Source: Escherichia coli (GTDB taxonomy: Bacteria; Pseudomonadota; Gammaproteobacteria; Enterobacterales; Enterobacteriaceae). From it: DNA of 64,000 nt. The DNA lies in the NCBI RefSeq assembly GCF_003334305.1, contig NZ_QOWS01000016.1; one strand, given 5' to 3'. The notes under the pieces were generated by a model, which was not told the DNA's origin, ran no database searches, and saw nothing but the letters and a program-made list of their open reading frames with translations. Position 1 is the first letter of the stretch; each line of letters begins with the position of its first letter. Positions 12,643 through 34,366 of the stretch are shown one piece after another. Both the position numbers and the translations under genes were made by a program.

Positions 12643-15600
12643 TTGAGCCAGGAATACACTGAAGACAAAGAAGTCACATTGACAAAGTTAAGTAGCGGCC
12701 GTCGCCTTCTGGAAGCGTTGCTGATCCTTATTGTCCTGTTTGCCGTCTGGTTGATGGCTGCCTTACTAAGCTTTAACCCTTCGGACCCCAGCTGGTCGCA
12801 AACGGCCTGGCATGAACCTATCCATAATTTAGGTGGGATGCCCGGTGCGTGGCTGGCAGATACGCTGTTCTTTATTTTTGGCGTGATGGCTTACACCATT
12901 CCCGTCATTATTGTCGGCGGTTGTTGGTTTGCCTGGCGTCATCAGTCCAGTGACGAATACATTGATTATTTTGCCGTTTCGCTACGCATCATTGGCGTTT
13001 TGGCGCTCATCCTTACCTCCTGTGGTCTGGCGGCAATCAACGCTGACGATATCTGGTATTTTGCCTCCGGTGGCGTCATTGGCAGCTTACTAAGCACTAC
13101 GCTACAACCACTGCTACACAGTAGCGGGGGAACTATTGCGCTGCTCTGCGTTTGGGCTGCGGGCCTGACGCTGTTCACCGGTTGGTCATGGGTGACCATT
13201 GCTGAAAAACTCGGCGGCTGGATTTTAAACATTCTCACCTTCGCCAGTAATCGTACCCGTCGCGATGATACCTGGGTCGATGAAGATGAATATGAAGATG
13301 ACGAAGAGTATGAAGATGAAAACCACGGCAAACAGCATGAATCACGCCGTGCCCGTATTCTTCGCGGCGCGCTAGCGCGTCGTAAACGGTTGGCGGAAAA
13401 ATTCATTAATCCGATGGGGCGGCAAACAGACGCTGCGTTGTTCTCCGGTAAGCGGATGGATGATGACGAAGAGATTATCTACACTGCACGCGGTGTGGCT
13501 GCCGACCCGGACGACGTCCTATTTTCGGGCAATCGTGCAACGCAGCCAGAATATGACGAATACGATCCATTATTAAACGGTGCGCCAATTACCGAACCTG
13601 TCGCTGTAGCAGCTGCTGCTACCACGGCGACACAAAGCTGGGCTGCGCCGGTTGAACCTGTGACTCAGACGCCGCCTGTTGCCTCTGTTGATGTTCCACC
13701 TTCGCAACCTACAGTAGCCTGGCAGCCTGTACCGGGTCCACAAACGGGAGAGCCGGTTATTGCTCCTGCACCGGAAGGTTACCCACAGCAGTCACAATAT
13801 GCGCAGCCTGCAGTGCAATATAATGAGCCGCTGCAACAACCAGTACAGCCGCAGCAGCCGTATTATGCACCTGCAGCTGAACAACCTGCGCAACAACCTT
13901 ACTACGCTCCTGCGGCGGAACAACCTGTTCAGCAACCGTATTACGCCCCTGCGCCAGAACAACCGGTGGCAGGTAACGCCTGGCAAGCCGAAGAGCAGCA
14001 ATCCACTTTTGCTCCACAGTCTACATACCAGACTGAGCAAACTTATCAGCAACCAGCCGCTCAGGAGCCGTTGTACCAACAGCCGCAATCCGTTGAACAG
14101 CAGCCTGTTGTGGAGCCTGAACCCGTTGTAGAAGAGACAAAACCCGCGCGTCCGCCGCTTTACTATTTTGAAGAAGTGGAAGAGAAGCGAGCCCGTGAAC
14201 GTGAACAACTTGCGGCCTGGTATCAACCGATTCCAGAACCGGTTAAAGAACCAGAACCGATCAAATCTTCGTTGAAAGCGCCTTCTGTTGCAGCAGTACC
14301 TCCAGTAGAAGCCGCTGCCGCTGTTTCTCCGCTGGCATCTGGCGTGAAAAAAGCGACACTGGCGACGGGGGCTGCCGCAACCGTTGCCGCGCCAGTCTTC
14401 AGTCTGGCAAATAGCGGTGGACCGCGTCCGCAAGTCAAAGAGGGGATTGGCCCGCAGTTGCCACGACCGAAACGTATCCGCGTGCCAACTCGTCGTGAAC
14501 TGGCGTCTTACGGTATTAAGCTGCCCTCACAGCGTGCGGCGGAAGAGAAAGCCCGTGAAGCCCAGCGCAATCAGTATGATTCTGGCGATCAGTATAACGA
14601 TGATGAAATCGATGCGATGCAGCAGGATGAACTGGCACGTCAGTTCGCCCAGACACAGCAGCAACGCTATGGCGAACAGTATCAACATGATGTGCCCGTA
14701 AACGCAGAAGATGCAGATGCTGCGGCAGAGGCTGAACTGGCTCGTCAGTTTGCGCAAACTCAACAACAACGTTATTCCGGCGAACAACCGGCTGGGGCGA
14801 ATCCGTTCTCGCTGGATGATTTTGAATTTTCGCCAATGAAAGCGTTGCTGGATGATGGTCCACACGAACCGTTGTTTACGCCAATTGTTGAACCTGTACA
14901 GCAGCCGCAACAACCGGTTGCACCGCAGCAGCAGTATCAGCAGCCGCAACAACCAGTTCCGCCACAGCAGCAATATCAGCAGCCGCAACAGCCGGTTGCG
15001 CCGCAGCCGCAGTATCAGCAGCCACAACAGCAGGTTGCGCCGCAGCCACAATATCAGCAGCCGCAACAACCGGTTGCGCCACAGCCGCAATATCAGCAGC
15101 CGCAACAACCAGTTGCGCCGCAGCCGCAGTATCAACAGCCGCAACAACCGGTTGCACCGCAGCAGCAGGATACCCTGCTTCATCCGCTGTTGATGCGTAA
15201 TGGCGACAGCCGTCCGTTGCATAAACCGACGACGCCGCTGCCTTCTCTGGATTTGCTGACACCGCCGCCGAGCGAAGTGGAGCCGGTAGATACCTTTGCG
15301 CTTGAACAAATGGCTCGCCTGGTGGAAGCGCGTCTGGCTGATTTCCGTATTAAAGCCGATGTCGTCAATTACTCTCCGGGGCCGGTTATCACTCGCTTTG
15401 AACTTAACCTGGCTCCTGGCGTAAAAGCGGCGCGCATTTCTAACTTGTCACGGGACCTTGCCCGTTCACTTTCGACGGTGGCGGTGCGTGTCGTTGAAGT
15501 TATTCCTGGCAAACCCTATGTAGGTCTGGAGTTACCAAATAAAAAACGACAAACCGTTTATCTGCGCGAAGTTTTGGATAACGCCAAATTCCGCGATAAT

Positions 15601-20267: not shown

Positions 20268-20281
20268 TTGATACCGAACAA
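20268..20281. promoter_or_regulatory. Candidate FNR site in dmsA promoter
   Basis: TTGATaccgAACAA matches TTGAT-N4-ATCAA at 9/10 positions, about 170 bp upstream of the dmsA ATG. Confidence 0.5.
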
Positions 20282-33103: not shown

Positions 33104-33961
33104 TTAATGGTGATCGTTTTCACGCAGGTAAATGACCCAGTATGTCAACCCAACCAACAAACCACCGCCGATAATATTACCGATCGTAACCGGAATCAGG
33201 TTATCAGTGATGAAGTTCATCACGGTCAGGTGAGAAAAATTTTCCGGTGCAGAACCGACAGCGGTCCAGAATTCCGGAGATGCGAAGTCGCGGATTACAA
33301 TACCCATCGGGATCATAAACATGTTTGCGATACTGTGCTCAAAACCGCTGGCAACAAACATCGCGACCGGCAGCACCATAATGAACGCTTTGTCCATCAG
33401 GCTACGGCCAGAATAACTCATCCATACTGCCAGACATACCATCAGGTTTGCCAGGATACCAAGGCAGACGGCCTCAATAAAAGTATGGTGCACTTTGTGG
33501 TCGGCGGTTTGTAGGACGTTTAGTCCCCATTGACCATTTGCGGTCATATACTCGCCGGAAAGCCACATTAAAAGTACAAACAGCAGTGCGCCGACCAGGT
33601 TGCCAAAATAGACATTTAGCCAGTTTTTCGCCAACTGACCCCAGGTGATGCGCCCACTCGCCTTAGCAACAACAATCAACACTGTGGAAGTAAAGAGATC
33701 GGCTCCGCAGACAACACAAAGAATCAGCCCCAGAGAGAAGCAAATGCCGCCAACCAGTTTTGCCATGCCGAAGGGCATTGTGCCTGTGCCAGTGGTTGCT
33801 GTGATATAGAAGACGAATGCGATTGAGATGAAAACACCGGCGGTAATCGCCAGATAGAAAGTCTTAAGCGGATGTTTCGTTGCTTTATAGACACCCGCCT
33901 CTTCGGCCACTTTGGCCATTGCAGCAGGAAGTAAAAGATCAAAAGGGTTGTCAGCTTTCAC
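33104..33961 (-). CDS. focA: focA, formate channel (285 aa; GTG start)
   Basis: ORF track 33104..34135 trimmed to GTG at 33959-33961 (MKADNPFDLLLPAAMAKVAEEAG); FNT-family membrane protein. Confidence 0.9.
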   Translation of the reverse strand: MKADNPFDLLLPAAMAKVAEEAGVYKATKHPLKTFYLAITAGVFISIAFVFYITATTGTGTMPFGMAKLVGGICFSLGLILCVVCGADLFTSTVLIVVAKASGRITWGQLAKNWLNVYFGNLVGALLFVLLMWLSGEYMTANGQWGLNVLQTADHKVHHTFIEAVCLGILANLMVCLAVWMSYSGRSLMDKAFIMVLPVAMFVASGFEHSIANMFMIPMGIVIRDFASPEFWTAVGSAPENFSHLTVMNFITDNLIPVTIGNIIGGGLLVGLTYWVIYLRENDHH

Positions 33962-34021
33962 ACTAACTCTCTCTTTATTAAGTCGGCGACGAGATACTAA
34001 CAAAGCATTATAGATGAGAAA

Positions 34022-34035
34022 TTGATATAGATCAT
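34022..34035. promoter_or_regulatory. Candidate FNR site in the focA-pflB upstream regulatory region
   Basis: TTGATatagATCAT, 9/10 match to TTGAT-N4-ATCAA, about 60 bp upstream of the focA start. Confidence 0.45.
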
Positions 34036-34366
34036 ATCTCGCCTGGCTTATAGGCCCGTAACTCGCATGGTTTTTATGCAAATACGGAGTAAATATTTGA
34101 TTATCCAAATAAAAATAAATTTTAAAAATTAACAAATGAGTTGAATTTTTTCCGCATCCTCCGCTAAAACAGTTAATTAAAAGGGAGCATCAGGCGAATA
34201 AAGTAACAATATCGATCGTATTTATTAAATACAAATTACCGATATTTAACCTTATAATTACAATTATTTTATTAATGCAAATATATGTAAAGCGGGGCAT
34301 TAAAAAAACGCCCCGTAATATAACTCAGACTAATCATTAAGCCTACATTGCGTAGGCTATTTGATT

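Follow-up and report, generated by a model that had tools for sequence, protein, structure and literature searches.

The 405-bp gap between ycaO and focA-pflB of Escherichia coli consists, with a probability that we put at about 0.88, of two ordinary elements of the minus strand lying end to end, namely the 3′ UTR and terminator of ycaO and the promoter-regulatory region of focA-pflB. Together these are the long-studied oxygen-responsive control region of focA-pflB and the ycaO terminator, which are real, ordinary and already known. The first element would reach from 34366 to about 34279 and the second from about 34322 to 33962. All positions refer to the window, by which we mean the whole stretch of E. 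coli DNA analysed (64 kb, 64,000 nucleotides).

The gap and its counterparts in related bacteria

The gene order on the minus strand is ycaO (36127-34367), the gap, focA, pflB, and pflA; the gap itself comprises positions 33962-34366 and is bounded by the focA GTG at 33961 and the ycaO stop codon at 34367-34369. The source DNA is ∼99% identical to and collinear with MG1655 and is in register with it around the gap. Published positions were converted to window coordinates by subtracting 919,728 from the U00096.2 coordinate. Small insertions or deletions distinguish the window from MG1655, and in ftsK (about 13900-15100) the identity is lower, at 96%; before this place the offset of the window from MG1655 is 76 bp.

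For comparison we used 75 orthologous gaps of other Enterobacteriaceae (76 sequences including E. coli) and in addition five orthologous gaps from other families (Hafnia, Edwardsiella, Serratia, Yersinia ruckeri, and an Erwiniaceae genome). In all 75 relatives the gap is 382-407 bp long and focA starts with GTG, and in the Enterobacteriaceae alignment the stretch from 34036 to the focA start is nearly invariant. Within the species the gap sequence was found in 5424 of 5426 complete E. coli genomes, many of them with 100% identity. Of 5425 E. coli records, all but one have a single match that spans 80% or more of the gap. In one E. coli genome part of the gap is matched 20 separate times, and five matches are on plasmids, which suggests that copying or mobilisation of a fragment has taken place in a few strains.

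An earlier note, made from the letters of the window, had described the gap as an AT-rich 405-bp region between ycaO and focA-pflB. Its length and its composition (30.9% G+C compared to 51.1% in the window) are borne out, and so are the positions of two FNR-like boxes and the presence of two hairpins. On the other hand, it is not the largest non-coding gap in the window, as the trxB-lrp gap with ∼544 bp exceeds it, and both the coordinates of the hairpins and the assignment of an A7 run as a hairpin flank had to be corrected (see below). That the region controls focA-pflB agrees with the literature, since the published FNR site, ArcA peak and start site all fall into the gap.

The gap also appears in other published data. 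It has been published as a ‘promoter island’, and anaerobic H-NS ChIP-chip regions (33443-34125 and 34247-34929) flank and overlap it. Insertions of IS elements into the focA/ycaO gap recur as adaptive mutations of E. coli in the gut of mice, with anaerobic focA expression going up (PMC5094792, PMC4674774). In the expression table of Myers 2013 ycaO and focA change in opposite directions (ratios 3.8 and 0.15; PMC3688515), which we read as higher ycaO expression with oxygen and higher focA expression without oxygen.

Concerning coding capacity, none of the small reading frames in the gap is conserved, and we do not regard them as genes. The focA frame stays open upstream of the GTG and thereby gives a 343-codon TTG frame on the minus strand (33104-34135), which was rejected as a gene of its own because it is an in-frame upstream extension of focA. 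Database entries for FocA are often over-extended (325-398 residues, one such cluster with 4963 members), and these over-long entries look like a gene-calling artefact to which the GTG start gives rise. The features discussed in the following are collected in Table 1.

Table 1. Features of the region between ycaO and focA, listed along the minus strand (window coordinates)
Feature	Position	Strand	Remark
ycaO stop codon (TAA)	34367..34369	-	MG1655 annotation, in register here
Hairpin 1, AGCCUAC-GCAAU-GUAGGCU	34340..34358	-	outer 5-bp helix extends to 34332-34366
Hexamer TAGGCT, -35-like position	34340..34345	-	semi-conserved; exactly 17 nt upstream of TATATT
Invariant TATATTACGGGGC, -10-like TATATT and terminator 5′ arm	34310..34322	-	exact 13-mer in 60 related loci
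Hairpin 2, predicted terminator stem-loop CGGGGCGUU-UUUUU-AAUGCCCCG	34293..34315	-	39 distinct stems, compensatory changes
Degenerate terminator U-tract CUUUACAUAUAUUU	34279..34292	-	4 T in first 8, 6-8 in most relatives
Promoter-like site TTTACA-17-AATAAT	34263..34291	-	E. coli-specific; 2/76 sequences
ArcA site, four direct repeats including TTGTAATTATAAGGTTAA	34221..34274	-	ChIP-seq peak and predicted site of Park 2013
Conserved AGTTAATTAA (TTAATTAACT on the minus strand)	34171..34180	+	held 145-146 bp from box 1
Putative IHF core AATCAAATATTTA	34090..34102	-	perfect match to WATCAANNNNTTR; 5′ A/T tract 34105-34150; overlaps box 2
FNR site 1 (box 1), TTGATATAGATCAT	34022..34035	+	centre ∼40.5-41.5 bp upstream of promoter P6
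TATAAT, -10 of FNR-independent promoter	34007..34012	-	mapped start A at 33998; 75/76 sequences
TAGTAT, -10 of FNR-dependent P6	33994..33999	-	hexamer in 76/76 sequences
Shine-Dalgarno GAGAGAG (33973-33967) and focA GTG start (33961-33959)	33959..33973	-	

FNR site and proximal focA promoters

The first of the two FNR-like boxes had been placed in the earlier note at exactly the position given in Table 1, with nine of ten positions agreeing with the FNR consensus TTGAT-N4-ATCAA, and both statements hold. The window contains four sequences with 9/10 matches whereas 2.5 are expected, so that the count alone is not significant. The conservation is more informative: among the 76 Enterobacteriaceae sequences the half-site positions of box 1 are at least 97% conserved and two spacer positions only ∼70%. 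Judged from the alignment, fixed half-sites with a variable spacer are the pattern expected of a dimer site. Outside the family box 1 is kept as ATGAT-N4-(A/G)TCAA in all five of the gaps compared.

The table of predicted sites of Myers 2013 lists this very sequence at U00096.2 position 953,750, which corresponds to 34022 in the window, and the FNR ChIP-seq peak of the same study at 953,741-746 (window 34013-34018) is only 4-9 bp away from box 1 (PMC3688515). Furthermore, focA-pflB is classed there as directly activated by FNR with a site at -40.5 (Myers 2013 Table 1, PMC3688515). Given the published coordinate and the ChIP-seq peak, box 1 is the site at the focA promoter P6 for which FNR binding in vivo has been published.

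Two promoters are found close to this site. A focA start was mapped at 953,726, that is 33998 in the window, giving a 37-nt leader, and it is the sole focA start in this aerobic data set (Kim 2012, PMC3415461). For P6 we infer a start at about 33987-33988, and the hexamer TAGTAT is correctly spaced for such a start. FNR bound to box 1 activates P6 from about -41. This arrangement is shared with the class II FNR promoters of dmsA, narG and yfiD, which likewise have a TTGAT-N4-ATCAA site ∼40.5-41.5 bp before the start that is bound in vivo. In contrast to these promoters, there is a second promoter only ∼10 bp upstream which does not depend on FNR (TATAAT, start 33998), and box 1 overlaps its -35 position. 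Kaiser and Sawers are said to have reported in 1997 that FNR binding also selects between the two overlapping focA promoters. The dmsA site is present in the same window as TTGATACCGAACAA (20268-20281, plus strand, one mismatch) and coincides with the published dmsA FNR ChIP peak at 939,992 in U00096.2 (window 20264).

Hairpin 2 as the predicted terminator of ycaO

At the other end of the gap two hairpins follow the ycaO stop codon. Two G+C-rich perfect stems are found in the gap in only ∼0.5% of 2000 mononucleotide shuffles, and the 106-nt stretch with both hairpins gives folding z values of -5.1 (ycaO sense) and -4.0 (antisense). The earlier note had reported a GC-rich hairpin at about 34290-34320 flanked by A7. 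This hairpin, here hairpin 2, exists and folds, but the coordinates were a few bases off and the A7 run (34302-34308, plus strand) is its loop and not a flank. The arms are formed by 34293-34298 and 34310-34315 and are extended by wobble and A-U pairs to 34293-34301 and 34307-34315, so that a stem of 9 bp encloses a loop of 5 nt; the hairpin follows the stop codon at a distance of 51 nt.

In the relatives the same place is occupied by a canonical stem of the form GGGGC-variable-GCCCC followed by 6-8 T. There are 39 distinct stems and all of them are paired. Positions 6-8 of the stem occur with 4-5 pair types and include double changes, and at position 3 a G-C pair is replaced by A-U through a double change. 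The G·U pairs present in relatives are compatible only with RNA of the ycaO sense. Of 68 sequences, 63 carry six or more T among 8 nucleotides of the tail. The U-tract is weakest in E. coli and Salmonella, where 4 in 8 are T (E. coli tail CUUUACAU). The more distant families each have their own unrelated terminator in the same place. [quoted passage not shown] Entries for ycaO or focA were not found in the supplements of eLife 62438, mBio e01442-14, NAR gkac295 and the Nat Commun SMRT-Cappable-seq study.

The earlier note had left open whether the hairpins serve as terminator, insulator or RNA element. For the GC-rich hairpin the covariation and the T-run in relatives answer this question, and on these comparative grounds hairpin 2 is very probably the Rho-independent terminator of ycaO. 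As in other intrinsic terminators there is a G+C-rich stem-loop 3′ of the stop codon with covariation and, in relatives, a T-run. It differs from typical intrinsic terminators in the degenerate U-tract of E. coli and Salmonella and in the fact that its 5′ flank and its 5′ arm, GGGGC, are invariant in sequence and the arm is more constrained than the 3′ arm, which termination does not need. Hairpin 2 together with the weak U-tract would end the monocistronic ycaO unit and would stop ycaO transcription from running into the anaerobically induced focA-pflB.

Invariant block and candidate distal promoter

The invariant 5′ side of the terminator belongs to a conserved block that contains the hexamer TATATT. 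Nearly all genera that possess the block keep it unchanged. The hexamer is present in 67 of the 75 relatives (68 of 76 sequences). It matches the -10 consensus at 5/6 positions, whereas the -35-like hexamer TAGGCT, replaced in relatives by TAGGCG, TAGGTT, ATGGCG or TATGCG, matches at only 3/6. The spacing between the two is exactly 17 bp in the 67 relatives, with a spacer of fixed length and variable sequence. The distance from the block to box 1 is held at 283-288 bp across genera, while the distance to the ycaO stop codon varies (35-45 nt). Klebsiella and Raoultella lack the block and nevertheless keep the terminator, so that TATATTAC 5′ of the terminator is dispensable for termination. Since every position is invariant, the block is also unlikely to be coding. 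A comparison by eye with consensus sequences gave no fit to a ModE, NarL or sigmaE site.

A strong anaerobic sigma70 ChIP-seq peak is located at 954,040, that is at ∼34312 in the window; with a height of 3801 it is above the peak close to P6, and in the absence of oxygen it increases about 6-fold (Myers 2013, PMC3688515). The peak lies on the terminator and is not accounted for by P6 and the promoter starting at 33998. It is possible, though we hold this only tentatively, that TATATT (34322-34317) and TAGGCT form a distal sigma70 promoter directed toward focA with a start at ∼34309-34311 in the 5′ arm of the terminator. Such a promoter would add to the main explanation. RNA polymerase coming from ycaO would terminate, whereas an RNA started at ∼34309-34311 would lack the 5′ arm and would read through. 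The conservation of TATATT with its spacer of fixed length, the stronger constraint on the 5′ arm, the position of the block fixed relative to box 1 and not to the ycaO stop codon, and the anaerobic sigma70 peak all speak for this possibility.

The pfl promoters have been reported to span 1.2 kb. With this span the historical P7 would sit in the area of the block, with 1261 nt from position 34310 down to the pflB ATG, and the distal promoter may thus be the P7 of the older literature.

Against a distal promoter stand the poor -35 hexamer and the missing TG extension, and the module is absent from Klebsiella, Raoultella and the other families. The aerobic data of Kim 2012 report no start at this place but only the one at 33998 (PMC3415461). 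Furthermore, the sigma70 peak could have other sources. It could stem from the TTTACA-17-AATAAT site, which has been named as RpoD holoenzyme SELEX site for focA-pflB (Shimada 2014) and would start at about 34256, from a TATAAT on the plus strand at 34253-34258, or from cross-linking through a DNA loop. A more specific proposal, which we regard as doubtful, gives TATATTACGGGGC two uses: its 13 bases would supply the ycaO terminator with 5′ flank and 5′ arm, and would also provide the -10 and the discriminator for a distal promoter of focA-pflB that is occupied under anaerobic conditions and whose transcripts start in the stem and so escape termination.

Putative IHF core

The second box, TTGATTATCCAAAT, lies at exactly 34097-34110 as described in the earlier note, which had taken it for a weaker FNR box. 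The coordinates are exact but the assignment does not hold up well. Only 6/10 positions match the FNR consensus. One half is a perfect TTGAT/ATCAA and is conserved, whereas the second half is non-consensus and only 30-80% conserved in the 76 sequences. The conserved ATCAA half and a conserved TTR four bases further on make up a perfect IHF core, and in the alignment of this core WATCAA and TTR are kept but N4 is variable. The window contains eight perfect IHF cores compared to 2.6 expected. At exactly 67 bp upstream of box 1, a perfect core is present in 53 of the 76 Enterobacteriaceae and in Serratia as well.

That box 2 is a second, weaker FNR site serving an upstream promoter is unlikely in our view. 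The perfect TTGAT half would fit, and two predicted FNR sites are given for focA-pflB in Table 1 of Myers 2013 (PMC3688515). However, the table of high-quality predicted sites of that study has box 1 only, there is a single FNR ChIP peak, and what is conserved is instead the IHF pattern WATCAA-N4-TTR. Thus, in its conservation pattern box 2 fits an IHF core better than an FNR site. A perfect palindrome, TATTTG-N6-CAAATA (34094-34111), surrounds box 2; it is 1 bp off the FNR register and poorly conserved.

A requirement of IHF for pfl expression is attributed to Sirko 1993 where that study is cited in reference lists. In the tables of Myers 2013 examined as text, an IHF ChIP-chip entry with coordinates in the gap was not found. 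IHF bound to the core at 34102-34090 would bend the DNA.

ArcA repeats and spacing of the elements

The earlier note had proposed to check the region for ArcA occupancy. A published ArcA ChIP-seq peak indeed lies in the gap, at 34237 in the window, and belongs to a site of four repeats at 34221-34274 (Park 2013, PMC3798270). The direct repeats are ∼11 bp apart, and their cores TGTAAT, GGTTAA and GGTAAT are conserved in the Enterobacteriaceae alignment. A further conserved element at 34171-34180 reads AGTTAATTAA or, on the other strand, TTAATTAACT, which we take to resemble the classical ArcA box. ArcA binds to the direct repeats and probably also to this GTTAATTAA element.

The distances between the elements are kept across genera. 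From box 1 to the focA start there are 74-76 bp, from TTAATTAAC to box 1 145-146 bp, and the TATATT motif is held at its distance from box 1 as given above. A spacing fixed within 1-3 bp across genera fits a phased, looped complex of ArcA, IHF, FNR and RNA polymerase, and from this spacing we infer that the DNA may be looped.

Hairpin 1 and candidate RNA elements

The AGCCTAC hairpin of the earlier note, here hairpin 1, exists and folds as well, but it is located at 34340-34358, ∼7 bases off the 34333-34351 given there. It is a lineage-specific stem-loop of the 3′-UTR in E. coli and Citrobacter. The segment between the stop codon and the motif folds with z = -4.6 in E. coli as compared to a mean z of -1.1 over 65 distinct relatives, and in these relatives sense and antisense do not differ (Wilcoxon p = 0.12). 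Based on the low mean z and the lack of strand asymmetry, a universally conserved RNA structure was rejected. As a terminator in the ycaO sense hairpin 1 was rejected because its tail UAAUGAUUAG has no U-tract. On the plus strand it is followed by a T-tail, which is specific for E. coli and derives from the end of ycaO, and we judge this terminator-like arrangement to be incidental. Within the main explanation hairpin 1 (34358-34340) would be an extra stem-loop of the ycaO 3′ UTR in the E. coli lineage.

It has to be considered whether hairpin 1 and the terminator hairpin, together with the single-stranded UAUAUUAC, constitute a small RNA derived from the ycaO 3′ UTR, with an Hfq module and the invariant stretch as seed. 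We consider this very unlikely. The layout of a hairpin, an AU-rich single strand and a terminator is indeed that of the Hfq-dependent 3′-UTR small RNAs of the DapZ type (two hairpins, AU-rich linker and terminator), the 8-9 nt directly 5′ of the terminator are invariant, and the Rfam model of DapZ gives a weak match that spans the whole model (25.3 bits). However, this score is far under the gathering threshold of 56, and the opposite strand yields an equally weak match to PrrF (30.4 bits, threshold 90), which makes the resemblance a generic one. In fact, searching Rfam on both strands with permissive thresholds gave only these sub-threshold generic matches, DapZ on the minus and PrrF on the plus strand. 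Unlike in the case of DapZ, evidence for Hfq is not found, ycaO being absent from the Hfq CLASH supplementary tables examined, and the structure of the first hairpin is not conserved. Moreover, the motif keeps its distance to the focA elements and not to the ycaO stop codon, the literature search turned up no paper linking ycaO to a small RNA, and ycaO was picked as a ‘simple’ transcription unit (Herzel 2022, PMC9122600).

A small-RNA-like layout of the plus strand at 34253-34373 is seen in E. coli only, and the sub-threshold PrrF match is located there. A short E. coli transcript of the plus strand, with the perfect -10 hexamer TATAAT at 34253-34258, a start at ∼34265, a 21-codon frame from 34275 to 34340 that is among the listed open reading frames, and an end at hairpin 1 and the T-rich tail that follows it (34340-34373), is scarcely credible: a terminator-like structure is predicted on this strand and the sigma70 peak is ∼47 bp away, but the T-tail consists of the last ycaO codons and is E. 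coli-specific, the TATAAT is the complement of an ArcA repeat with one position poorly conserved, the -35 hexamer matches at only 3/6 positions, the frame lacks both a Shine-Dalgarno sequence and conservation, and nothing is annotated there in MG1655.

Biological meaning

Reading the gap as ycaO 3′ UTR and terminator followed by the focA-pflB promoter-regulatory region places it at the locus of the known pfl region of E. coli, which is activated by FNR and ArcA, depends on IHF and has multiple promoters. The published coordinates agree with those of FNR site 1, of the ArcA repeats and of the start at 33998, and nothing essential differs from the known system; what we add is comparative only, namely box 2 as a putative IHF core and the fixed spacing.

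If the dual use of the invariant block is true and it is not the historical P7, it would represent an undescribed promoter, or an undescribed recognition site for a protein or RNA, that is conserved in most genera of the Enterobacteriaceae. The region sets the amounts of pyruvate formate-lyase and of the formate channel when oxygen runs out, which is already known. The additions are modest: box 2 as a likely IHF core, a spacing of ArcA, IHF, FNR and promoter elements fixed within 1-3 bp, and the coincidence of an invariant block with an anaerobic sigma70 peak. They sharpen the annotation of the region and leave the overall picture of its function unchanged.
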